Source of the DNA: Gemmiger formicilis
GTDB lineage: Bacteria > Bacillota_I > Bacilli_A > RFN20 > CAG-826
Direction: 5' to 3'
Assembly (NCBI GenBank): GCA_963626345.1
Contig: CAVFXI010000015.1
Location: forward strand, 12,485 to 76,484
DNA length: 64,000 bases
Made by a program: the position numbers and the translations under genes
Shown here: positions 5,529-52,993 of the stretch, piece by piece
How positions within the stretch are numbered: the first letter of the stretch is position 1
Layout of the letters: each line of letters opens with the position of its first letter
Notes under the pieces: generated by a model
Told to the model about the DNA's origin: nothing
The model's input: only the letters and a program-made list of their open reading frames with translations
Databases searched by the model: none

Positions 5529-5857
5529 GTGATGATCGTGGAATGAAAAAATGGCTTCCGTTTTCTTCTCTTGTTGAACAAAACCAATTTTTAGAAGAAA
5601 TGTTATACGAAAAAAATAAAATTCGTAAACCAAAAATATCTACAGAACAAGCGCGAAAAATTGATTTAATTTTACATGAGCACGTAGATATCCCACTAAC
5701 TTTTAAAATATATTTCGATGGATATTTATATACGTTTCGCGCTCAAATTCAAAAAATCGATAAAAATAGCAATTTAATTTATTTTAAAAATTTCTTTATT
5801 CCAATTAAGGATATTATAGATATCGATGATCCTTCAGACTTTGAAAATATATGCTAA
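5525..5857 (+). CDS. YolD-like protein (UmuD-analogue accessory of the Y-family polymerase)
   Basis: DRGMKKWLPFSSL matches the YolD-family signature (RGMxKWxPFxSL). 4-nt overlap with the polymerase gene. Confidence 0.75.
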   Translation: MSDDRGMKKWLPFSSLVEQNQFLEEMLYEKNKIRKPKISTEQARKIDLILHEHVDIPLTFKIYFDGYLYTFRAQIQKIDKNSNLIYFKNFFIPIKDIIDIDDPSDFENIC

Positions 5858-8517: not shown

Positions 8518-8650
8518 GGCTATAATTTTATCAAATTAATAATAATTTAGAATAGAAAGCGATTCAAAATTGAAAAAAAGTAAAGTTCACAAATGAAACA
8601 TCAATCAATCATTCTTGAAACTTTAATGAAAAAGCATATCAATTGCTCAT

Positions 8651-8683
8651 TCTTTTATAAAAAAACAAGGTTTGCACCTTGTC
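8651..8683 (-). terminator. intrinsic terminator of secG
   Basis: Minus-strand reading: ACAAGGTGCAAACCTTGT hairpin followed by TTTTTTT directly after the secG stop. Confidence 0.7.
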
Positions 8684-17913: not shown

Positions 17914-18351
17914 TTATTTTTCAAAATTTTTTATTGTATCAACTCTCAAACAATGTCTACCAGCTTCAAAAGGTGTGTTTAAGAAAATATCAGTTCTATG
18001 GATTATGTCTTCAATTTTCATAAATTTTGCACCAAAAGAAATCATATTACAGTCATTATGTTGTCTAATTAGACTTGCAACTTCATCATTGTAAGCAAGC
18101 CCACAACGGATTCCATGAACTTTGTTTGCAGCAATCGAAATACCTTCACCGCTTGTGCAAATTACAACACCAAACTCGCACGTTCCAGCCGAAACAAGTT
18201 CTGCTGCTTTTAATCCAAACTCTGCATAATTGCAACTATCTAAAGAATTAGTTCCAACATCAATAACTTCATATCCTTCTTGTTCTAAGTGTTGCTTCAA
18301 TGCTTCTTTAGCAATGAAACCACCATGATCTGATCCAATTGAAATTTTCAT
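17914..18351 (-). CDS. rpiB: ribose-5-phosphate isomerase B
   Basis: 145 aa; MKISIGSDHGG and the catalytic Cys region VICTSGEGISIAANK. Confidence 0.85.
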   Translation of the reverse strand: MKISIGSDHGGFIAKEALKQHLEQEGYEVIDVGTNSLDSCNYAEFGLKAAELVSAGTCEFGVVICTSGEGISIAANKVHGIRCGLAYNDEVASLIRQHNDCNMISFGAKFMKIEDIIHRTDIFLNTPFEAGRHCLRVDTIKNFEK

Positions 18352-18992
18352 TTTATTTTCTCCTTGATTTCTTCTAATGATAATTTACCTTTTCTTATTA
18401 ACGAAATTTTATCTCCATCAATTTTTATTATAGTTGATGGAACACCTTTTTCACAATTGCCTTCAATTACCCCATCAATTTCCCCCTCAAATTCAGATAT
18501 GACACTATTAGTATTCATACATGGTTCTTTACCAGATTTATTACATGAAGGCACAAAAAGTGGTTCATTTACAGCATCAATTAATTTTAAGACAAATTCA
18601 TCATTAGGAATTCTAATTCCAACAAATCCACTTCCATGATCAATGCAATATGGTATCCCTTCCTTTGCTTTAACAATAATAGTTAAAGGACCAGGCATAA
18701 ATTCTTTAACTATTTTCTTAGAAATTTCATTAAATTCAATATACGTTTCGACCTGTTTTATATTTGAACACATTAAAGTAAATGGTTTTTCAGGAGGTCT
18801 TTTTTTAACTTCAACTAACTTATTATAGTTTTCTAACTTGGGTGCTTTAACACCTAATCCAAAAACAGTTTCTGTAGGAAAAGCTAAAAGACCATCATTT
18901 TTTAAAATTTCGCTAGCTTCTTTAATTTGATTTTTCTTCAAGATTTTCAATATTATAGCCTCCAAAGATAAATAAATATCTATCTTTACCAT
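18348..18992 (-). CDS. tsaC: L-threonylcarbamoyladenylate synthase (YrdC/YwlC/Sua5 family)
   Basis: FPTETVFGLG signature. Start moved to the internal Met (MVKIDIYL) to limit overlap with prmC. Confidence 0.8.
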   Translation of the reverse strand: MVKIDIYLSLEAIILKILKKNQIKEASEILKNDGLLAFPTETVFGLGVKAPKLENYNKLVEVKKRPPEKPFTLMCSNIKQVETYIEFNEISKKIVKEFMPGPLTIIVKAKEGIPYCIDHGSGFVGIRIPNDEFVLKLIDAVNEPLFVPSCNKSGKEPCMNTNSVISEFEGEIDGVIEGNCEKGVPSTIIKIDGDKISLIRKGKLSLEEIKEKIK

Positions 18993-19809
18993 ATATATCT
19001 TTTTTAAATATATATTGTACATTTTCTCTATCAAAATAATGATTAATCAATGCAGAAAGTCCTTCTTTTTGATCAAAATTAATTTCAAAAGCCATGAAAA
19101 ATTTATCATTCATTACGCTTTTATAATGCCTAAAATATGAATCATAAAAATGTAAACCATTCATGGAATAAATAGCATTAAGTGGTTCATATCTTAAAAC
19201 TTTAGGCTCTATATCATTAATATTTTCAACATATGGAGGATTAGAAATTAATACATCAATTTTAATTTTGTTTTCCTCTAAAGGCTGCAATCTACTGCCT
19301 TTAAGCAAATTGATATTCAAATTAAGTCTTTCTTTATTAATTTTTGCAACAATCAATGGATCTTCATATTTATCCGTTGCATAAACGGTAGATTGACTAA
19401 ATTGTTCTTTCATGTAAAGCGCGATGCAACCACTACCTGTGCAAATATCTGCAATAGAACCATGATTTAATTGATATTTATTTATATAATCCTTAACAAA
19501 AAGCGCTAATCCTTCAGTCTCTGGTCTAGGAATTAAAACATTTCTGTTAATAAATATATCCAAATCAATAAAAGAGGTCTTTCCTAAAATATATTGAATA
19601 GGTTCTCCATCGAGTAATTTATTCAAATTTCGTATATATAACGCCTTATTTTTAATTTTTTCATCAAAATTAATAACCAATTCAGTATATGAAGAAAGCT
19701 CGTTAGCATTTGCTAATAATCGATAAATTTCAGTATCACTAATATTATTATTTTTGCGTTTTTTTAATTGTTCTTTTGTATCTAGAAAAACTTCTCTATT
19801 AGTTTCCAT
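18922..19809 (-). CDS. prmC: release factor glutamine methyltransferase PrmC (HemK)
   Basis: NPPY catalytic motif (ISNPPYVE) and SAM-binding DICTGSGCIAL. Confidence 0.85.
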   Translation of the reverse strand: METNREVFLDTKEQLKKRKNNNISDTEIYRLLANANELSSYTELVINFDEKIKNKALYIRNLNKLLDGEPIQYILGKTSFIDLDIFINRNVLIPRPETEGLALFVKDYINKYQLNHGSIADICTGSGCIALYMKEQFSQSTVYATDKYEDPLIVAKINKERLNLNINLLKGSRLQPLEENKIKIDVLISNPPYVENINDIEPKVLRYEPLNAIYSMNGLHFYDSYFRHYKSVMNDKFFMAFEINFDQKEGLSALINHYFDRENVQYIFKKDIYGKDRYLFIFGGYNIENLEEKSN

Positions 19810-20886: not shown

Positions 20887-20959
20887 AATTTTACACCCTC
20901 AAATCTTTAAAATTATATCAAATTAACAATGTTATTTAAAGCAATCTAATTGTTTAATG

Positions 20960-20994
20960 CCCACAACCTTTATGATATAATCATAAACGGGTTA
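20960..20994 (+). promoter_or_regulatory. candidate dnaX promoter with an extended -10 (TGaTATAAT)
   Basis: ctttaTGaTATAATcataaacgggttaaaaattATG: TG-N-TATAAT about 22 nt before the dnaX ATG, weak -35 TTTAAT at 17-nt spacing. Confidence 0.4.
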
Positions 20995-21000
20995 AAAATT

Positions 21001-22701
21001 ATGTCATACAAAGCTTTATACAATAAATATCGTAGTCAAACATTCGATGAATTAGTTGGACAACAAGCGATTGTTCAAACTTTAAAAAACGCTCTTGAAT
21101 TAAATAAAATATCACACGCTTACCTTTTTTGTGGTCCTCGTGGTACTGGTAAAACTAGCGTCGCAAGATTATTTGCAAAAGCATTAAATTGCGAAGAAGG
21201 AATTGGTCATCAATGCAATAAATGTGAAAATTGCAGGCAAATAAGTGATGGCGAACATCCAGATGTAATTGAAATAGATGCTGCTAGTAATTCAGGTGTC
21301 CAAGAAGTTAGGAACTTAATTGAAAAAGTTAAATATGCTCCAATTAAAGGAAGATACAAAGTTTATATTATTGATGAAGTTCATATGATGACTAGTAGCG
21401 CTTTTAATGCATTACTCAAAACATTAGAAGAACCACCAGAATATGTAGTTTTTATTCTTTGTACAACTGATCCTTATAAGTTATTGCCAACAATCATTTC
21501 ACGTTGCCAAAGATTCGAATTTAAAAAAATTAGCGATAATGATTTAAAGAAATTAATTGTAAGAGTTTTAACTTCTGAAAACATTAAAGCAGATTTAGAA
21601 ACTGTAAATTTAATCGTTGAATTAGCAAACGGAGGAGCTAGAGATTCTCTTTCAATGCTCGATCAATTAATAGCTTATTCAGGAAATGAAATTCATTTAG
21701 ATGATGTAAGAAGAGTTTTTGGTCTAACTAGTATGGATGAAAAACTTAATCTTTTAAAAATCATTTCAGAAAATAATACATTACAATTATTAAATATCTG
21801 TAGCGAATTCTTTAAAAGAAATGTCGATATATCAAGACTAACCGATGAACTTCTTCTTATCTTAAAAGATGCGCTTATCTATTCTAAGGTTCAATCAAAA
21901 AATCTTTTAGTGTTAATTGATGAAGATAAAGCAAAAGCAATTACATCTATATTTAGTGAGGCTCAATTATTCTCAATGATTGATTCATTGTTAAAGTGTC
22001 AAAATGAATTTAAAACTTCATCAAACCCATCATTCATTTTCCAAATTTATTTATTAAAAATGATCGATGTCACAAATGAACCAGTTTCAAAATCTGATAT
22101 TCAAGTATGCAATACCAACGATAACAAAGCGATTAATTCAAATGTCATACATGAAAAAGTTCAAAAGGCGGAAGTCAAACCAACTGTTGAACCAGAACCA
22201 AATTCAATTAAAGATTTGAATAATTTAAAACCTATTTTTGCTAAAGAACCAGAGCAAAAAAAGAAAGAAGAAAAATCACCAATTGCAATTAGTGGTGAAT
22301 CATATGAGATTGATAAAAATACTCTCATAAAAATAATGGTTCTAGGAAATAAATCCTTTAGAGAAGAGATTATGAAAAGATGGGATTATTTCGATTTATT
22401 TAAAAATGATTTAGAACTCGGTCCATTTGCAATGCTATTGAAAGATGGAACACCTTATGTTGTTACGCCAGATATTATGATTATAAGATTTAATTTTGAA
22501 AGCGAAGCAACAAGATGTAATGTTAAATCAAACCAAGATAAATTAGAAAAGGTTGTTGAAAAAATCGTTGGTAAAAAACTATTCATTTATGGAATCAATC
22601 GAAAAGTTTTAAATGATTTAACTCACGAATTCATAAATTTGAAACAGGTTAATAAATTGCCTAAACCTGAAGAAATAGGCGAAATTAAAATAGAAAGATA
22701 G
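21001..22701 (+). CDS. dnaX: DNA polymerase III subunit tau/gamma DnaX
   Basis: AAA+ clamp-loader motifs (GPRGTGKTS, DEVHM, SRC). Start at MSYKALY. The in-frame heptamer A_AAA_AAG at 22257..22263 is noted under findings. Confidence 0.9.
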   Translation: MSYKALYNKYRSQTFDELVGQQAIVQTLKNALELNKISHAYLFCGPRGTGKTSVARLFAKALNCEEGIGHQCNKCENCRQISDGEHPDVIEIDAASNSGVQEVRNLIEKVKYAPIKGRYKVYIIDEVHMMTSSAFNALLKTLEEPPEYVVFILCTTDPYKLLPTIISRCQRFEFKKISDNDLKKLIVRVLTSENIKADLETVNLIVELANGGARDSLSMLDQLIAYSGNEIHLDDVRRVFGLTSMDEKLNLLKIISENNTLQLLNICSEFFKRNVDISRLTDELLLILKDALIYSKVQSKNLLVLIDEDKAKAITSIFSEAQLFSMIDSLLKCQNEFKTSSNPSFIFQIYLLKMIDVTNEPVSKSDIQVCNTNDNKAINSNVIHEKVQKAEVKPTVEPEPNSIKDLNNLKPIFAKEPEQKKKEEKSPIAISGESYEIDKNTLIKIMVLGNKSFREEIMKRWDYFDLFKNDLELGPFAMLLKDGTPYVVTPDIMIIRFNFESEATRCNVKSNQDKLEKVVEKIVGKKLFIYGINRKVLNDLTHEFINLKQVNKLPKPEEIGEIKIER

Positions 22702-22712
22702 GAGAAAAAATT

Positions 22713-23018
22713 ATGAATATGCAACAAATGGTTCAAGCCATGCAAAAAACTCAAAGAGAATTTAATAAGGAATACGCAAAACTCGAAGCTAAAGAATTCA
22801 AGGCTAATGCTAATGGAGTTGTCGAAGTTGTTGTTATGGGTGATTTATCACTTAAAGCTGTCAACATTTTAGATGATTCAATTTTGTCAAAAGAAAATAA
22901 AGAAGAATTAAGCGATATGATTTGCCTTGCTTACAAAAAATGCCAAGAAGAAATTCAAAAAGAAAGTGATGCTATTTCAAACAAATTTAAACAAGGTGCT
23001 GGGGGAATGATGTTCTAA
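22713..23018 (+). CDS. ybaB: nucleoid-associated protein YbaB/EbfC
   Basis: 101 aa; conserved family placed between dnaX and recR. Confidence 0.85.
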   Translation: MNMQQMVQAMQKTQREFNKEYAKLEAKEFKANANGVVEVVVMGDLSLKAVNILDDSILSKENKEELSDMICLAYKKCQEEIQKESDAISNKFKQGAGGMMF

Positions 23019-23629
23019 TGAAAGAACTTCATTCTTTAAACAAACTTATTGATGCATTAAAATCATTCCCTTCAATTGGGAGTAAAACAGCCGAGAGAAT
23101 GGGCTATAGCATTCTCGATATGGATGATGATGAAGTTAACAATTTAATAGAATCTATCAATAGCGCAAAGCATGATATCCATCAATGCCCTATTTGTGGG
23201 TTACTAACTGAAGATGATGAATGTTATATATGCAAAGATACAAATAGAGATCACTCAGTTTGCATAGTTTTATCATACCCAAAAGATGTTATTAATTTTG
23301 AAAAATTAAATAGCTTTCATGGCGTTTATCATGTATTAAATGGTGTTATTTCATCATTGCATGGAGTTGGTCCTGAAGATTTGCGAATCAACGAATTAAT
23401 CGAAAGAATTAAAAAAGAAAATATTAAAGAAATTATTATTGCTACGAATCCAACATTAGAAGGTGAAACAACTGCTTTATATCTTGCAAGAATATTAAAA
23501 GATTATGATGTAAAAGTAACAAGACTTGCCTATGGTTTGCCAGCAGGAGGACAACTCGATTATGTGGATGAAGTCACAATTGAAAAAGCTTTAGATAATA
23601 GAACCAATTTAAAAAAGGAGGATAAATAA
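23018..23629 (+). CDS. recR: recombination protein RecR
   Basis: C4 zinc finger CPICG..CYIC followed by a Toprim domain; 203 aa. Confidence 0.9.
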   Translation: MKELHSLNKLIDALKSFPSIGSKTAERMGYSILDMDDDEVNNLIESINSAKHDIHQCPICGLLTEDDECYICKDTNRDHSVCIVLSYPKDVINFEKLNSFHGVYHVLNGVISSLHGVGPEDLRINELIERIKKENIKEIIIATNPTLEGETTALYLARILKDYDVKVTRLAYGLPAGGQLDYVDEVTIEKALDNRTNLKKEDK

Positions 23630-24250
23630 ATGTTTATTACATTTGAAGGCGTTGAAGGATGTGGAAAATCCTCCGTTTTAGCTAAAGTTTACGATGAACT
23701 CAAAAATGAAGGGTTTGATGTCATTCAAACTAGAGAACCAGGCGGTGTAAAAATTGCTGAAGAAATTAGAAAAGTTTTATTAGACAAAGAAAATACAATG
23801 ATGGACAAAAGAACAGAAGCCCTTCTTTTTGCTGCAAGTAGAAGACAGCACTTAATAGAAAAAGTATGGCCTGCTCTTAAAGAAAATAAAATCGTTCTTT
23901 GTGATAGATTTATTGATTCGTCACTAGCTTACCAAGGCGGAGGCGATGGAATTGGCGTAAATGAAGTCTTAAATGTTAATCTTTTTGCCACCGAAAACAC
24001 CTTCCCTGATTTAACAATTTTATTTGACATTGATCCAAGAGTAGGATTAGCAAGAATTAATAAAAATGCAAATCGCGAAGTAAATCGTTTAGATGTTAAA
24101 GAATTGAGTTTTTATGACACAATTCGTAACACATTCTTAGAACTTGCAAAAGAATATACAGATCGATTTGTTGTTATTGATGCAAGTATGGATTTTGATG
24201 CTGTTTATCAAATCGTTTTAAAAATTATTAAAGAAAAGATAAGAAAATGA
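23630..24250 (+). CDS. tmk: thymidylate kinase
   Basis: P-loop FEGVEGCGKSS, DRF motif (CDRFIDSS). Confidence 0.9.
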   Translation: MFITFEGVEGCGKSSVLAKVYDELKNEGFDVIQTREPGGVKIAEEIRKVLLDKENTMMDKRTEALLFAASRRQHLIEKVWPALKENKIVLCDRFIDSSLAYQGGGDGIGVNEVLNVNLFATENTFPDLTILFDIDPRVGLARINKNANREVNRLDVKELSFYDTIRNTFLELAKEYTDRFVVIDASMDFDAVYQIVLKIIKEKIRK

Positions 24251-25068
24251 ATTACGTTGAATATTTAGAAAAAGAGCAAACAACTGCTTACAAAATTTTC
24301 TATAATGCATTTAAAAATAATCAAGTTTTTCATGCATATCTTTTAAGTGGACAAGCAGGCACTCCACTACTTGAAATTTCTAAATTTTTAGCAAAATCAT
24401 TAATATGTAAAAACAAAAATCCTTTTGCTTGCAATTCATGTTCAGATTGTTTGCGTATTGATAATGAAATATATGGAGATTTAATAATAATTGACGGGAA
24501 AAAAGAACCAATCAAAAAAGAGTCAATACATAGAATTGAAGAAGAATTTTCAAAAACTTCATTAGAAAAGTCTGGAATTAAAATCTATATAATTAATTTA
24601 ATTGAAAATATGACATCTGATTCTGTAAGCGTTCTTTTAAAATTTTTAGAAGAACCTACAGAAAACACATATGCTTTTTTAACTACCGAGAATGAATTTA
24701 GAGTGCTGCCAACAATTCTTTCAAGAACTCAAATAGTTCATTTTAATTCAATAGATAAAAAAATATTGATTGAAGAAAGTCTTAAAAACGGAGTAAGCGA
24801 TATTGATGCCGAACTTCTTTCAAACTTCTATAATGATTCTTCTTCAATTAAAAGTGAATCAGAAAATGAAGATTATAAAGAAATTAAAAAACTTACTTTA
24901 GATATATTTTCTAATATAAAAAATAAAGAAGAATTAAGATTTTATTTTGAAAACAATATTGTTAAAAATAAAATTATTAAACAAAACATAAGGTTTTTCT
25001 TTAATGAATTAAACTATAATATCAATATTGATTTGTTATTAATTAATGTTTTGGATACTATATTTTAG
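24247..25068 (+). CDS. holB: DNA polymerase III delta prime subunit HolB
   Basis: AAA+ clamp-loader fold with a zinc module CNSCSDC and TILSRTQ; 4-nt overlap with tmk. Confidence 0.8.
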   Translation: MNYVEYLEKEQTTAYKIFYNAFKNNQVFHAYLLSGQAGTPLLEISKFLAKSLICKNKNPFACNSCSDCLRIDNEIYGDLIIIDGKKEPIKKESIHRIEEEFSKTSLEKSGIKIYIINLIENMTSDSVSVLLKFLEEPTENTYAFLTTENEFRVLPTILSRTQIVHFNSIDKKILIEESLKNGVSDIDAELLSNFYNDSSSIKSESENEDYKEIKKLTLDIFSNIKNKEELRFYFENNIVKNKIIKQNIRFFFNELNYNINIDLLLINVLDTIF

Positions 25069-25088
25069 AAGATAGAGGAATTTATTTT

Positions 25089-25886
25089 ATGGAATTAATA
25101 TATATTACAGTCGCGTTTATGAATACTAGAAAAAGCTATTTCTTTTCTACTACTGATCCAACAATTGTTCCTGGTGATAAAGTTTTAGTTGAAACTGTTG
25201 TTGGCAAAGAAATAGGAACTGTTTTAGCAACTAATATAACTGTTAATAATCACGAATTTACAAAAGAAATCAAACCAATTATTGCTAAAGCTACTGCTCA
25301 AGACTTGAAAATTGCTGAAGCAAATGCAAAATTAGCTTTAAAAGCTAATGTAATTTTTGAGACTTCAGTTAAAAATTTAGGCTTTGATATGCGCTTAATA
25401 TCTAGCGAATATACTTTTGATTGTTCAAAAATTTTATTTGTGTATGCAAGTGATGAAAGAATTGATTTTAGAGAATTATTAAAAATATTGGCTGCTGAAT
25501 TACATTGTAGAATAGAATTAAGGCAAATAAATTCTCGCGAGAGAGCACAACAAATAGGTGGAATTGGTGTTTGTGGATTGCAATTATGTTGCACTACATT
25601 CTTTAGAACATTTGATGGAATCTCATTAAATCGTGCTAAAAATCAAATGCTGGCCATTAATATTCCTAAGTTGAGCGGTCAATGCGGAAAACTTATGTGC
25701 TGCTTAAAATATGAAGATGATTTATATACCGAAGCAAAACAAAAATTCCCTAAATTAGGTTCAAAAGTTAAATATGAAGGTCAAGAATATAAACTTACTA
25801 GTTTTAATATTCTTACAAAAATTTGTAAAATAGAAAATGAAGATTCAATTGAATTTGTTCATTTAAAAGAAATTAAAGAGATATAA
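25089..25886 (+). CDS. yaaT: PSP1-domain protein YaaT/RicT (stage 0 sporulation protein homologue)
   Basis: PSP1 C-terminal region with Cys cluster CGLQLCCTTF...CGKLMCCLKYE. Confidence 0.8.
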   Translation: MELIYITVAFMNTRKSYFFSTTDPTIVPGDKVLVETVVGKEIGTVLATNITVNNHEFTKEIKPIIAKATAQDLKIAEANAKLALKANVIFETSVKNLGFDMRLISSEYTFDCSKILFVYASDERIDFRELLKILAAELHCRIELRQINSRERAQQIGGIGVCGLQLCCTTFFRTFDGISLNRAKNQMLAINIPKLSGQCGKLMCCLKYEDDLYTEAKQKFPKLGSKVKYEGQEYKLTSFNILTKICKIENEDSIEFVHLKEIKEI

Positions 25887-25887
25887 A

Positions 25888-26700
25888 ATGTCGGGAAAAT
25901 TATATTTAGTTCCTTCGCCAATTGGCAATATTGATGATGTTTCTCCTCGACAAAGAAATGTTCTTTCTAGTGTCGATTTTATTGCCTGTGAAGACACAAG
26001 AAATACTATGAAATTGCTCAATATTTTAAATATTAAGAAAAAATGTATTTCATGTCACGAACACAACGAATCAGTTTCTAGCAAAAATATTGTTGATCAT
26101 ATTATAGAAGGCGAAAATGTAGCTTATTTAAGTGACGCTGGTTATCCATGCATTAGTGATCCTGGCTATATTCTTGCTAAAAAATGTATTGAAAACGGGA
26201 TTAATGTAGTCCCTATTTCTGGGGCGAGTGCTTTTTTAAATGGCTTAGTTGGGAGCGGACTAGAAACAGACCATTTTCTTTTTTATGGTTTTTTGAGTAG
26301 CAAACACTCAGATAGAATTGAAGAAATTACAAAAATTAAAACACTTCCATATACAATAATTTTATATGAGGCACCTCATAGAATTAAAGAATGCATAAGT
26401 GATTTATATAGTATCATGGGTGAAAGAAATATCTGTATATGCAGAGAATTAACAAAAGTTCATGAAGAATTTATTAGAACTTCTTTAAAATCTTTCTTAG
26501 ATAAGCCAATTGAATTCAAAGGCGAAATGGTAGTTGTTTTAGAAAAGACACAAGAGAAAAAAGAAACAATTAATAATGAAGATATCATTAACAAAGTTGA
26601 TGAATTAATTAAAAATGGGTTAACTAAAAAAGACGCTATTACTAGCATCTCATTGTTATTAAACATCCCTAAAAATACAGTTAAAAAACTAGTTATGTAA
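25888..26700 (+). CDS. rsmI: 16S rRNA (cytidine1402-2'-O)-methyltransferase RsmI
   Basis: GKLYLVPSPIGN N-terminus and tetrapyrrole-methylase fold; conserved position after yaaT. Confidence 0.9.
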   Translation: MSGKLYLVPSPIGNIDDVSPRQRNVLSSVDFIACEDTRNTMKLLNILNIKKKCISCHEHNESVSSKNIVDHIIEGENVAYLSDAGYPCISDPGYILAKKCIENGINVVPISGASAFLNGLVGSGLETDHFLFYGFLSSKHSDRIEEITKIKTLPYTIILYEAPHRIKECISDLYSIMGERNICICRELTKVHEEFIRTSLKSFLDKPIEFKGEMVVVLEKTQEKKETINNEDIINKVDELIKNGLTKKDAITSISLLLNIPKNTVKKLVM

Positions 26701-45349: not shown

Positions 45350-45386
45350 AAGCATCTTGTTAAATTCAAGATGCTTTTATTTTTCA
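45350..45386 (+). terminator. intrinsic terminator of the iscU-like/GGGtGRT operon
   Basis: AAGCATCTTG-TTAAATT-CAAGATGCTT stem followed by TTTATTTTT. Confidence 0.75.
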
Positions 45387-45392
45387 AAAAAT

Positions 45393-45407
45393 ATATACGT
45401 TTTGGGC
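45393..45407. repeat. intergenic motif copy A: ATATACGTTTTGGGC, followed by TTTTTT
   Basis: Member of the ATATACGTTTYGGSC family. Confidence 0.6.
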
Positions 45408-45479
45408 TTTTTTAAAATCTTAAAAGTAAAGATGTAAATTATATTTGAGCCAATCACTATTAATTCATGCGTGAACCAC

Positions 45480-45504
45480 AAAAAAACACATACTTTCATA
45501 TGTG
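45480..45504 (-). terminator. intrinsic terminator of the M18 aminopeptidase gene
   Basis: Minus strand reads CACATATGAAAGTATGTG hairpin followed by TTTTTTT. Confidence 0.6.
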
Positions 45505-45520
45505 CTAATTTTGAAATTTA

Positions 45521-45535
45521 ATATACGTTTCGGCC
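45521..45535. repeat. intergenic motif copy B: ATATACGTTTCGGCC
   Basis: Identical 15-mer to copy C; sits 5 nt past the M18 gene stop codon (45541) on the minus strand. Confidence 0.6.
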
Positions 45536-45540
45536 TCTTT

Positions 45541-46812
45541 TTATAATTTTGCGTTATAAAATTCTTTAATTAATGAATACATATATTCAACATCTTTTGA
45601 ACCCGCAGTTTCATAACTTGAATGCATTGCAAGTTGTGCGCAGCCAATATCACAGGTTCTAATTCCAATTTGTGAATTACTTAAAGTTCCTAAAGTAGAT
45701 CCGCCTCTTATATCACTTTTGTTATAGAAAATTTGGAAAGGAATTTCTTTACTTTTGCAAAGCGAGATAATTGGTGCTGCAGTTTCTGCATCACTCATAT
45801 ATGCCATATTACTATTAAACTTAATAATTGGCCCTTTATTTAAATAAACTAAATTATTTGAGTCGCTTAATTCAGGATGATTTGGATGAACTGCATGTCC
45901 ATTATCAATTGATAAATTAAATGATCTTGCCATTGCTGAGAAAAATTCGTTTTCACTAAAATTTAAAGAATTTGATATACGTTTTAGTGTATTTTTTAAG
46001 AAATCACCATCTGCACCAGAATAAGTTTTACTGCCAATTTCTTCATTATTAAATGCGGCAAAAACAGAAATATTATCATTGTTACTTTCTAAAAATCCTC
46101 TTAAGCTTAAATAAGCACTTTCTAAATTATCAATTCTTGGAGACATAACAAATTCATCATTTGCTCCGCCAACATAACTTTTTGTGAAATTATACGTATT
46201 TAATTCATATGTGATAATTTTGCTTTCTTCAATGTTCAAATATGAACTAAGCTCTTTCAAGATTGAATTTTCTTCGCCACCTAGAGAAATAATAGGTTTT
46301 AAATCAATATCTTCGTTATATTTAAATCCATCATTAATCTGTCTATTAAAATGAATACAAACGTTAGGGATTATTAATAATGGTTTTTCAATATCAACAA
46401 ATTTTGTTTCGAATTTTCCATCATTTTCAACAATTACTCTACCAGCAATAGATAAAGGTCTATCAACCCAACTTGATAAGATTAAGCCACCATATTTTTC
46501 AATATTTAATTTATGATAACCATTCGTTACAACATCCTTTTCCATTTTTAATTTTAAACATGGAGAATCTAAATGCGACGATGCAATCGTGAAATTATAG
46601 TCTTTTATTTCGCAAGGAATTTTAAAAGCAATTACTCCGCTATCATTTCTAATCATGAAATAATTCTTGCCATATTCTAAAGAAAAATTCATTTTTTCAT
46701 CTAACTCAATAAAACCATTTGCTTTTAAGATTTCTCTAATATTATTTGCTGCATTAAATTCGCTATGTGTATGATTTAAAAAATCTAACAATCCTTCTAA
46801 AATGTAATTCAT
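45541..46812 (-). CDS. M18-family aminopeptidase (aspartyl aminopeptidase-like)
   Basis: SSHLDSPCLKLK (M18 HxDSP region) and C-terminal GCAQLAMHSSYE. Confidence 0.75.
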   Translation of the reverse strand: MNYILEGLLDFLNHTHSEFNAANNIREILKANGFIELDEKMNFSLEYGKNYFMIRNDSGVIAFKIPCEIKDYNFTIASSHLDSPCLKLKMEKDVVTNGYHKLNIEKYGGLILSSWVDRPLSIAGRVIVENDGKFETKFVDIEKPLLIIPNVCIHFNRQINDGFKYNEDIDLKPIISLGGEENSILKELSSYLNIEESKIITYELNTYNFTKSYVGGANDEFVMSPRIDNLESAYLSLRGFLESNNDNISVFAAFNNEEIGSKTYSGADGDFLKNTLKRISNSLNFSENEFFSAMARSFNLSIDNGHAVHPNHPELSDSNNLVYLNKGPIIKFNSNMAYMSDAETAAPIISLCKSKEIPFQIFYNKSDIRGGSTLGTLSNSQIGIRTCDIGCAQLAMHSSYETAGSKDVEYMYSLIKEFYNAKL

Positions 46813-50971: not shown

Positions 50972-51012
50972 ATGCACGCATTAAACATCAAGTTTCATGC
51001 GTGCATTTTTTT
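50972..51012 (+). terminator. intrinsic terminator of the hypB-ygfK-like-hypA operon
   Basis: ATGCACGCAT-15 nt loop-ATGCGTGCAT followed by TTTTTTT. Confidence 0.75.
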
Positions 51013-51020
51013 AAAATTTC

Positions 51021-51035
51021 ATATACGTTTCGGCC
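51021..51035. repeat. intergenic motif copy C: ATATACGTTTCGGCC
   Basis: 8 nt after the hyp operon terminator T-run; followed by the minus-strand SDR gene terminator (51043..51077). Confidence 0.6.
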
Positions 51036-51042
51036 TTAATTT

Positions 51043-51077
51043 AAAAAAACTCATTCGTAATAACCACGGATGAGTTT
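51043..51077 (-). terminator. intrinsic terminator of the SDR gene
   Basis: Minus strand reads AACTCATCCGTGGTTATTACGAATGAGTT followed by TTTTTTT. Confidence 0.6.
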
Positions 51078-51104
51078 TTCAATTACTTTAATTTAATCTA
51101 AAAC

Positions 51105-51958: not shown

Positions 51959-52993
51959 TTACTTATTCTCCTTTTCAACCGCTTCAAATAATCCACATAA
52001 ATATGCAGCACCTAAAGCTCTATCATATAAACCATATCCAGGTTTTGCTTCTTCTCCCCAAATATTACGCCCATGGTCTGGTCTAACATATCCATCAAAT
52101 CCATTGTTAACTAACTCTTTAACAATTTGATAAACATCAACGTTGCCACAAGCTGTTTGATGACCATTTTCATAAAAGTCAGTTTCATTAACAAATTTTA
52201 ATTGTCTTAAATGTGCAAAATATATACGTTTTGCGTACTTTTTTGCCATTTTTGGTAAATCATTAAACCTTCCTGCACCTAAAGAACCTGTGCAAAAAGT
52301 TATACCATTATGAACATTTGGGACTGCCTCAAATAGCCTATCATAATCACTTTCTTTTCCCACGATTCTAGGAAGTCCAAATATATCCCAAGGTGGATCA
52401 TCTGGATGAATTGCCATATTTATTTTTGCTTCATCACAAGCTGCCATAATAGCTTTCAAAAAATAAACTAAATTATCAAATAACTGCTCATGAGTCATAC
52501 CTTCATATTCTTTAAGCAAACCATTTAATTCTTCGCTTGAATAACTTTCGTCCCAACCAGGCAATCTTAAATTATGTTTATCAAGTTTGCTAAAATCAGC
52601 CTCGCTATAAGAAAGTGAATTCGATCCATCTTCGTGTTTATAATGTAAATTAGTTCTAAACCAATCAAAAACTGGCATAAAATTATAACAAATACATTTA
52701 ACTCCGTATTTCCCAAGAAGCAAAATATTCTTTTTATAATTTTCAATATATTTATCTCTTGTTGGCTTTCCAAGTTTAATATCTTCATGAACTGGAACAG
52801 ATTCTATAACTTCCATTTCTAAACCTGTTTTATCACATAATTCTTTTAAATGTTTAATGCTTTCTTCTGGCCAAACTTCTCCTACAGGAACATCATAAAC
52901 AGCAGTGACAACGCCACTCATTCCTTGAATTTGTTTAATATAATTTAATGGTATGCAATCATTTTCGCCATACCATCTAAATGTCATTTTCAT
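51959..52993 (-). CDS. uxuA: mannonate dehydratase
   Basis: MKMTFRWYGENDCIPL N-terminus characteristic of UxuA; 344 aa. Confidence 0.85.
   Translation of the reverse strand: MKMTFRWYGENDCIPLNYIKQIQGMSGVVTAVYDVPVGEVWPEESIKHLKELCDKTGLEMEVIESVPVHEDIKLGKPTRDKYIENYKKNILLLGKYGVKCICYNFMPVFDWFRTNLHYKHEDGSNSLSYSEADFSKLDKHNLRLPGWDESYSSEELNGLLKEYEGMTHEQLFDNLVYFLKAIMAACDEAKINMAIHPDDPPWDIFGLPRIVGKESDYDRLFEAVPNVHNGITFCTGSLGAGRFNDLPKMAKKYAKRIYFAHLRQLKFVNETDFYENGHQTACGNVDVYQIVKELVNNGFDGYVRPDHGRNIWGEEAKPGYGLYDRALGAAYLCGLFEAVEKENK

Follow-up and report, generated by a model that had tools for sequence, protein, structure and literature searches.

The stretch analysed here (hereafter the window) comprises 64,000 nucleotides of contig CAVFXI010000015.1, filed under Gemmiger formicilis, with a G+C content of 29.8%. 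At two of its junctions a plus-strand operon runs into minus-strand genes: the GGGtGRT operon faces the M18 gene, and the hypA operon faces the SDR/uxuA operon. The two gaps hold three copies (A, B and C) of a short asymmetric sequence that we call the box, a real, selected and lineage-restricted element. A preliminary description of this DNA had reported a repeat family with three intergenic copies of a shared 15-mer. All three exist, although the start positions given for the longer strings were 1-2 nt too low. As described, copies A and C follow plus-strand terminators, in the order T-run, 8 nt, core. Copy B does lie close to the M18 stop codon and before the M18 terminator, but its sequence is on the plus strand and not, as had been stated, on the minus strand. 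The element TTCATGCGTG said to be shared upstream of B and C is also present (45464-45473 and 50994-51003); near C it forms the 3' arm of the hypA terminator.

The box is a unit of ~45 bp that reads T6-7, A4-6, TTT, N, ATATACGTTTCGGCCTC, W5 (five A/T bases), A5-7. Its core, ATATACGTTTCGGCCTC, spans 16-17 bp and is almost invariant, non-palindromic and asymmetric, and the two T/A junctions of the box lie 31 bp apart, close to three helical turns. The T-run stands 8 nt from the core in most copies and often doubles as the tail of an adjoining terminator hairpin. The hairpin before it varies between sites and is absent from some of them (L169, L084:6174 and L045:6758); since the 8-nt spacing is kept there, the T-run is part of the box and not of the terminator. 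Across ~10 non-orthologous sites in at least five species the core is invariant or nearly so, with variable hairpins and flanks, and every family copy in related genomes carries extended context beyond the 16-mer. Intergenic copies are without exception found at 3' ends of transcription units. Roughly half of the sites fall between two convergent terminators, and six are at junctions where a lagging-strand operon meets a leading-strand operon.

Table 1 Copies of the box and related features of the window (window positions; strand of the motif)
Feature	Interval	Core or sequence	Strand	Score and layout	Position relative to genes
Copy A	45374..45422	ATATACGTTTTGGGCT, 45393-45408	+	27.7 bits; 2 changes from consensus	core 8 nt past the T-run of the GGGtGRT-operon terminator (stem 45350-45376)
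Copy B	45505..45551	ATATACGTTTCGGCCT, 45521-45536	+	40.9 bits; TTTTGAAATTTA before, CTTTTT after	4 nt from the stop (45541-45543) of the minus-strand M18 gene and before its terminator hairpin
Hairpin L of copy B	45480..45512			A-run 45480-45486, stem CACATA/TATGTG 45487-45504, then CTAATTTT	M18 terminator when read on the minus strand
Copy C	51000..51052	same 16-mer as B (ATATACGTTTCGGCCT), 51021-51036	+	49.5 bits; T-run 51006-51012, spacer AAAATTTC, core, TAATTT, A7	between the hypA terminator (stem 50973-51005) and the minus-strand SDR/uxuA-operon terminator (51045-51079)
Copy D	5722..5755	ATATACGTTTCGCGCT CAAATTCAAAAAAT, core from 5728	+	14/16 of core; profile E=7.8e-4	inside yolD-like gene (plus strand), sense
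Copy E	18729..18761	ATATACGTTTCGACCT, 18739-18754	+	15/16; profile E=4.8e-5	inside Sua5/TsaC-like gene (minus strand), antisense
Decayed sixth copy	8620..8662	ATATCAATTGCTCATTC, from 8636	+		SecG/FolD gap, just before the SecG terminator hairpin
Site G	45969..45984	AATTTGATATACGTTT; M18-gene sense AAACGTATATCAAATT, codes K R I S N	+	profile E=0.12, not significant	antisense to the M18 gene
Site F	52222..52231	10-mer only (AAA CGT ATA T in gene sense)	+	profile E=1.9, not significant	uxuA

The core is well above chance in the window, as had been proposed. The degenerate 15-mer, with up to 2 mismatches allowed, gives 6 matches against 0.29 expected (0/100 shuffles reach 6), and the 10-mer ATATACGTTT gives 7 against 0.25, with all 7 on the plus strand and 0 on the minus strand. 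A 56-column family profile built from 14 intergenic copies was then searched against the window; it recovered A, B and C together with two gene-internal members, E and D (18739 and 5728), both missed by the preliminary description and stronger than the two coding matches it had listed. Copy D is identical at 29/32 positions to C-type copies of relatives. A decayed copy near 8636 was recognised through its better-kept orthologue (L279:5699-5663, TTTTTTAAAAAACT ATATCAGTTCTGGCCTC AAAATAAAAAAA; E=0.0025 in L279), so that the window holds five family members and a decayed sixth. The two listed coding matches, F and G, have to be removed from the family. At F the Arg (CGT, CGA, AGA) and Lys codons differ in three related species, and since synonymous sites vary in this way the match is a coincidence of codons. 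Site G comprises the 10-mer and left flank only. It is nevertheless a 16-nt invariant run, the longest of the M18 gene across six species including two outgroups, in an alignment with 54% invariant columns, and the invariance extends to the synonymous positions in Arg (CGT), Ile (ATA) and Ser (TCA) codons. It coincides with the left half of the motif and is invariant also in species without intergenic copies.

We scanned GTDB, one genome per species, for ATATACGTTTCGGCCT and obtained 111 matches. About 100 of these are single matches in unrelated, mostly G+C-richer genomes and have a coding-like context. Twelve fall in 30-34% G+C contigs of three metagenome-assembled genomes (MAGs) from the same project as the MAGs of the window, and 12/12 have far more surrounding sequence in common. 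Each genome has 3-5 occurrences of the exact 16-mer plus T, which is confined to three closely related GTDB species (82-88% nucleotide identity); one further species, L169, is among the metagenome-scan matches listed. Counted genome-wide, as the preliminary description had suggested, the 16-mer is thus rare yet far above chance. There was no further copy in the 10 kb to the left of the window nor in ~56 kb of relatives, and four 13-mers of the core had no occurrence in the literature searched. A phage or plasmid origin was rejected: 34 matches to the motif in IMG/VR all lack the box context, and BLAST searches against phage and plasmid records returned A/T-rich noise only.

Several junctions carry the box in this clade. 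Besides the M18/GGGtGRT junction (A/B) and the hypA/SDR-uxuA junction (C), these are the ABC-transporter/FGGY-kinase junction (J1), an amidohydrolase junction with an extra copy in one species, the ppdK/ispE-ksgA junction (PpdK junction), a site after rplQ at the end of the ribosomal-protein operon (L067) and a site overlapping the pckA stop codon (L082), to which the decayed copy between SecG and FolD and the copies inside genes (D and E) are added. The GTDB representative CAVEUG is 99.2% identical to the window over 8 kb, and the M18 gene is identical in two ENA-derived MAGs. The nearest named relatives of the window proteins are all MAGs, at no more than 55% amino-acid identity (Bacillales 55%, Anaeroplasmataceae, Candidatus Onthovivens, Erysipelotrichaceae); the organism is therefore a reduced low-GC member of the Bacilli. 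It is uncultured, and the bacteria that carry the box form a small group from the gut.

Several database labels and background matches deserve mention in their own right. The MAGs that contain L040, L053, L067, L070 and L082 (CAVGUA), L084, L091 and L124 (CAVEUG), and L045 and L117 (CAVKEL) are filed as Parabacteroides goldsteinii, Slackia isoflavoniconvertens and Acutalibacteraceae; these organism names look wrong for the contigs, which have 30-34% G+C and are 85-99% identical to the window. In JADJPE010000005.1, a 7.3-Mb contig of 61-64% G+C from a Deltaproteobacteria MAG (L042, L047, L081, L102, L132), the 16-mer lies within a repeat of at least 96 nt present in at least five identical or nearly identical copies, one with a 1-nt insertion. 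This repeat, probably an insertion sequence or multicopy gene, is unrelated to the box. In Bacteroidota and others (for example L147, L105, L118, L135, L090, L167 and L181) the 16-mer occurs in a single coding context, ...ATACGTTTCGGCCT... followed by ...AAAGG.GT.GG.GA..., a stretch of a conserved protein, apparently I-R-F-G-L, which accounts for part of the background matches.

Because loci identified by exact match, as the initial ones were, bias an estimate of conservation, the same regions of other species were fetched through homologues of the M18 and YitT proteins. Species taken to bear the motif are CAVEUG, CAVKEL, CAVGUA, L275 and L280, with L270, L272 and L284 as outgroups. In these orthologues 5/5 clade species, which share 82-88% nucleotide identity with the window, keep the core of copy B (two of them with a single G>A), and the core of copy C is unchanged in 4/4. 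The rest of the B and C spacer is poorly conserved, and the adjoining hairpins show compensatory substitutions. At orthologous positions in four other species copy A is degraded to different degrees, and the SecG/FolD copy likewise decays across species. Because B and C are kept while the spacer diverges and the other two decay, their conservation points to selection and not to a low mutation rate: B and C are under purifying selection and other copies are dying. Two outgroup species (M18 identity 74% and 68%) have no motif at the B or C positions; in one of them, L270, the gap at B has the same length despite the absent motif. Inside genes, copy D occurs in L279, where it matches at 15/16 positions, and also in the outgroup L284. 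The matches of copy E to the 16-mer run from 10/16 positions (outgroup L284) through 13/16 (L283) and 15/16 (window) to 16/16 (L280). The differences involve no change of length and include amino-acid changes (P, K, T; V, A); the series, over four species compared, may fit a stepwise gain or a single gain followed by decay.

Birth and decay of this kind would also be expected of a selfish or REP-like (repetitive extragenic palindromic) repeat, in which a ~75-nt unit of bidirectional terminator hairpin, T-run, spacer and core spreads between gene-end gaps by gene conversion or a dedicated enzyme, the gaps being safe places and the core the recognition sequence of the enzyme. Restriction to one clade and absence from the orthologous B and C positions of both outgroups agree with this, as does the position at convergent gene ends, where REP elements, bacterial interspersed mosaic elements (BIMEs) and many miniature inverted-repeat transposable elements (MITEs) sit. 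In the alignment, copies C and J1 follow hairpins whose sequence is related to that of hairpin L (copy B), and these non-orthologous copies share ATGCACRTATGA...TCATAYGTGCATTTTTTT. Hairpin L escaped the terminator scan since its 6-bp stem has 2 G-C pairs and the scan requires 3. In one species, moreover, two co-oriented copies bracket a 3.8-kb block of two genes where two other species have one copy. The core, on the other hand, is not a palindrome, no terminal inverted repeats or target-site duplications flank any copy, and there are only ~10 copies per genome. Copy E arose within a gene by substitutions, the gap at B did not change length between L270 and the clade, and B and C are under purifying selection across species. 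No transposase is associated with the box; the lone nearby ISL3 fragment, in one species, has an unrelated end. We regard spread as a repeat of this type as rather unlikely. If the box is nonetheless a conversion-spread repeat, it would illustrate compactly how elements of this kind provide bidirectional terminators.

The box was compared with the corresponding classes of mobile or repeated DNA one by one. REP/BIME identity fails because the invariant 16-mer is non-palindromic and unfolded and the adjoining hairpins are variable and sometimes absent. No RAYT (Y1 HUH transposase) gene was seen among the genes called in the ~130 kb of clade genomes read. A MITE or insertion-sequence remnant was rejected on the missing terminal repeats and duplications, the origin of E and the gap length in L270. 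The 'miniature repeat family' of the preliminary description accordingly stands as a descriptive term for a repeat family of ~10 non-orthologous sites in at least five species, some with a shared hairpin, and falls as a classical miniature transposable element. An integron-like cassette array or att site appears less likely, since the other blocks between copies hold core genes (ppdK, mgtE, ispE, ksgA); one block, of 3.8 kb and in one species, is bracketed by co-oriented copies, and a second indel beside copy C is not bracketed.

The bracketed block (CAVEUG contig 16; L084:6275-8000, L124:1-1942) consists of two divergent paralogous amidohydrolase genes, 3.8 kb, flanked by the ABC-transporter gene and the FGGY-kinase gene; in two related species a single copy of the box stands there, without amidohydrolase genes. 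CAVKEL contig 121 (L117:258-1100 = L274:2040-2880) carries a species-specific insertion of ~835 nt that lies 10 nt past copy C. It contains the last ~70 codons of an ISL3-family transposase (PF01610, DDE_Tnp_ISL3, E=1e-7) with a putative end GGGGGTTTTGTAGGGTTACT, a border direct repeat TTAAAGAACC(G/A)AA and, on the opposite strand, an open reading frame (ORF) of 127 aa whose function is unassigned. The ISL3 match was found on an ORF that reads through copy C. An ISL3 end was rejected as the source of the motif because the transposase fragment is confined to one species and its own end is unrelated; a protein search found no homologue of the fragment, and tblastn gave no match in the other loci.

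The box has neither RNA structure nor coding capacity. Folding gave z-scores between -2.05 and +1.26 in five boxes, and only the box of the PpdK junction (z=-2.05) beats most shuffles. A stem-loop presenting the core was rejected on this basis: the T and A tracts can pair, but four of five boxes do not fold better than most shuffles. Rfam 15 finds only a tRNA in the window, and permissive scans of both gaps yield hairpin noise far below threshold. The box is also not an intrinsic terminator, since the core has no hairpin and the terminators are neighbours that share its T-run. A read-through peptide was rejected because the frame of the core fits the M18 and pckA stops and not those of the kinase and amidohydrolase genes.

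An RNA element could still act on the opposite strand, where AGGCCGAAACGUAUAU would lie in the 3' untranslated region (UTR) of leading-strand genes, ~15 nt upstream of the terminator hairpin, and bind a protein or small RNA (sRNA) that affects the stability or processing of the mRNA 3' end. The complement does lie 0-23 nt past the stop codon and before the terminator at four sites (B after M18, L082 over the pckA stop, J1, and L124 after an amidohydrolase gene), its spacing to hairpin L is fixed, and it is in the sense direction at all sites between genes of the same direction. At copy C, the PpdK junction, L067 and the SecG site, by contrast, it lies downstream of a good terminator, and at D it is antisense to the only overlapping gene. 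The box has no secondary structure or Rfam match, and its conserved flanks are A/T tracts and not pairing partners. A role of this sort appears doubtful to us. The 3' UTR and sRNA roles considered in the preliminary description are weakened in the same way, by the half of the sites that lie between convergent terminators and by the missing fold; what stays of them is the four sites in the 3' UTR of the opposite-strand gene.

On the plus strand, the box could instead be the promoter, together with the 5' end, of a small-RNA or antisense-RNA family, with the TAAAAT of T7-AAAATTT as -10 box, a start within the first bases of the core and the invariant core as a 5' seed. Promoters that consist only of a TAAAAT -10 box are typical of some reduced low-GC bacteria such as Mycoplasma, about half of the sites have the hexamer at a fixed distance (last base 3 nt before the core), and C-type sites have a T-tailed hairpin 25-50 nt downstream. 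Many conserved copies (L040, L053, L084, L067 and L082), however, lack the final T of the hexamer, which is critical. There is no -35 box, a promoter scan finds nothing at C, no terminator follows at B, J1 or L082, and the T-run after hairpin R is poor in some C orthologues. A promoter is thus very unlikely.

A transcription-factor operator was rejected since the intergenic copies are all at 3' ends and the core lacks symmetry. Of the consensus sequences compared, namely the LexA box, cre, parS, dif/difSL, PurBox and Spo0A box, and likewise the sigma-D, sigma-W and sigma-54 promoters, the com-box and the IHF (integration host factor) site, none fits the core beyond 5-6 bases. The box matches no described element in the databases or literature searched. 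In a wide sense it is one of the short dispersed extragenic repeats, from whose described members it differs in asymmetry, rarity and strict polarity.

This polarity appears to concern the chromosome. All window sites (6/6) are on the plus strand, a co-orientation that had gone unnoticed before. The GC skew of the plus strand is -0.28 at third codon positions of plus-strand genes, -0.12 at those of minus-strand genes and -0.19 in intergenic DNA; being negative in all three, it marks the plus strand as the C-rich, replication-associated lagging strand. The comparison of skew and orientation covered two independent regions. In the second, the J1/PpdK region of three species, two or three copies are co-oriented and the skew again puts the motif on the lagging strand, so that AGGCCGAAACGTATAT is its leading-strand reading. 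Copies D and E, and also the non-member site G, follow the chromosome strand and not their genes: D is sense, E and G are antisense. That D and E have opposite relations to their genes and share a chromosomal strand favours polarity at the level of the chromosome over that of the gene.

Strand bias, towards the leading strand, is also the mark of Chi and KOPS motifs, which are words of 5-8 nt found about once per few kb, and here the 10-mer is biased 7:0; the conserved unit, however, is 16-45 bp long, with no extra copies, and a motif of that type does not account for it. A DNA uptake sequence was considered on other grounds. Competence machinery that prefers the core with its phased A/T tracts would let copies accumulate by biased uptake and recombination, and the uptake signal sequences (USS) of Pasteurellaceae and the DNA uptake sequences (DUS) of Neisseriaceae show similar behaviour: a strict core and phased A/T tracts, enrichment at terminators, tolerated copies inside genes and clade-specific 'dialects'. 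Conservation at orthologous positions and the approach of copy E to the consensus point the same way. Uptake sequences, however, number hundreds to thousands per genome and lie on both strands; here the density is ~100-fold too low (3-5 exact copies in each genome, at best 5-6 sites over 74 kb), and all copies of a region are on one strand, which is not expected for uptake of duplex DNA. The host is of Gram-positive type, for which sequence-specific uptake is not known. We consider an uptake sequence highly improbable.

What best fits the invariant asymmetric core, the phased A/T tracts, the terminator-shielded gaps, the selection, the copies inside genes and the single orientation is a site read on DNA, and we tentatively propose that the box is an orientation-dependent recognition site for a protein. 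A protein-binding site is also the best fit among the three roles first offered for the family. A sequence-specific protein would read the box as double-stranded DNA, and we infer that binding would act in an orientation-dependent manner on the chromosome, whose lagging strand carries the motif and whose leading strand carries AGGCCGAAACGTATAT. The short gaps in which most copies sit mark the ends of transcription units, and the usual case is a lagging-strand operon facing a leading-strand one. There, terminators on one or both sides, often reusing the T-run of the box as a tail, would shield it from transcription; between convergent terminators neither strand should be transcribed efficiently. 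In its most concrete form the site could be a polar barrier or boundary similar to the Ter sites of Tus or RTP. Alternatively, it could serve an architectural protein that bends DNA, as does the IHF site in RIB/RIP elements.

Several observations count against a protein site. The related hairpins of the non-orthologous copies B, C and J1 suggest that a larger unit has been copied, in the manner of a repeat family. At the rplQ and pckA sites the skew gives an ambiguous or contrary answer, the ambiguity arising because only highly expressed genes, which have a codon bias of their own, can be used there. At every site between genes of one direction, four in all with those inside a gene, the complement and not the motif has the sense orientation, and since most genes are on the leading strand, polarity of replication and of transcription are not cleanly separable.

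The Ter sites recognised by Tus in Enterobacterales and RTP in Bacillus are among the nearest counterparts of the box. They too have an asymmetric conserved core of ~16 bp in ~10 copies per genome, are co-oriented by region, occur between and inside genes, are kept among close relatives and are restricted to a lineage; when bound, they also stop RNA polymerase in a polar manner. The asymmetric core, the few copies and the co-orientation in two regions agree with a site of this type. The box differs from Ter in that its sequence resembles neither Ter consensus and that its fixed association with a T-run and terminators is foreign to Ter. A gene for Tus or RTP was not seen, and five sites in 45 kb are dense for Ter-like sites, a point that also tells against the protein-site proposal. 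The neighbouring genes dnaX, recR, tmk, holB, ksgA and ispE and the ribosomal-protein operon are origin-proximal in Bacillus subtilis, a synteny that may not hold here. The boldest version would make the box the cis-site of a novel polar chromosome system of uncultured reduced-genome Bacilli, a third independent barrier of the Tus-Ter or RTP-Ter kind, in which a protein at boundaries between head-on and co-directional units would stop replication forks, RNA polymerase or both in one direction. This we hold to be quite improbable.

For an architectural site the comparison is with the RIB/RIP (BIME-1) elements of Escherichia coli, in which an IHF site is flanked by two convergent REP hairpins at operon ends. 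They share with the box an asymmetric core resembling a protein site, with an A/T-rich flank, between hairpins at the 3' ends of transcription units, and both are dispersed, extragenic and lineage-specific. The hairpins of the box are, in contrast, ordinary variable terminators and not a conserved REP palindrome, its core is off the IHF consensus (Bacilli are not known to have IHF), it has ~10 copies against ~100, and it keeps one chromosomal orientation with some copies inside genes. REP/BIME, ERIC, BOX, RUP and Correia elements resemble it more broadly as short dispersed repeats of gene ends, often in convergent gaps, that are lineage-specific, vertically inherited at orthologous loci and subject to turnover. 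The conserved part of the box differs from these in being no palindrome and in lacking a GTAG head, terminal inverted repeats, target-site duplications and an associated RAYT or transposase, and also in its very low copy number and strict strand polarity.

Dispersed gene-end repeats are well known and almost all those described are palindromic, abundant and without chromosomal polarity, whereas the box is rare, asymmetric, strictly co-oriented and selected. One of its copies, inside an essential gene, is progressively nearer to the consensus from one species to the next, and amino-acid changes are the price. Should a protein read the box, it would be a new kind of chromosomal site, dependent on orientation, in bacteria known from metagenomes alone, and the 16-mer would provide a handle for fishing out that protein.

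Three further observations concern neighbouring features of the window. In the spacer between A and B, TTCATGCGTG forms a small palindrome (TTCA..TGAA), palindromic also in L275, which is possibly a remnant of another family hairpin. The dnaX-ybaB-recR-tmk-holB-PSP1 block (20950-26700) is on the strand that the skew defines as lagging; if the skew is read correctly, the block is head-on to replication, which is unusual for such genes in Bacillota. Finally, the Sua5/TsaC ORF that contains copy E is listed at 18348-19034 with a TTG start and 228 aa; it overlaps the upstream prmC-like ORF and probably encodes 200 aa, as its orthologues do.

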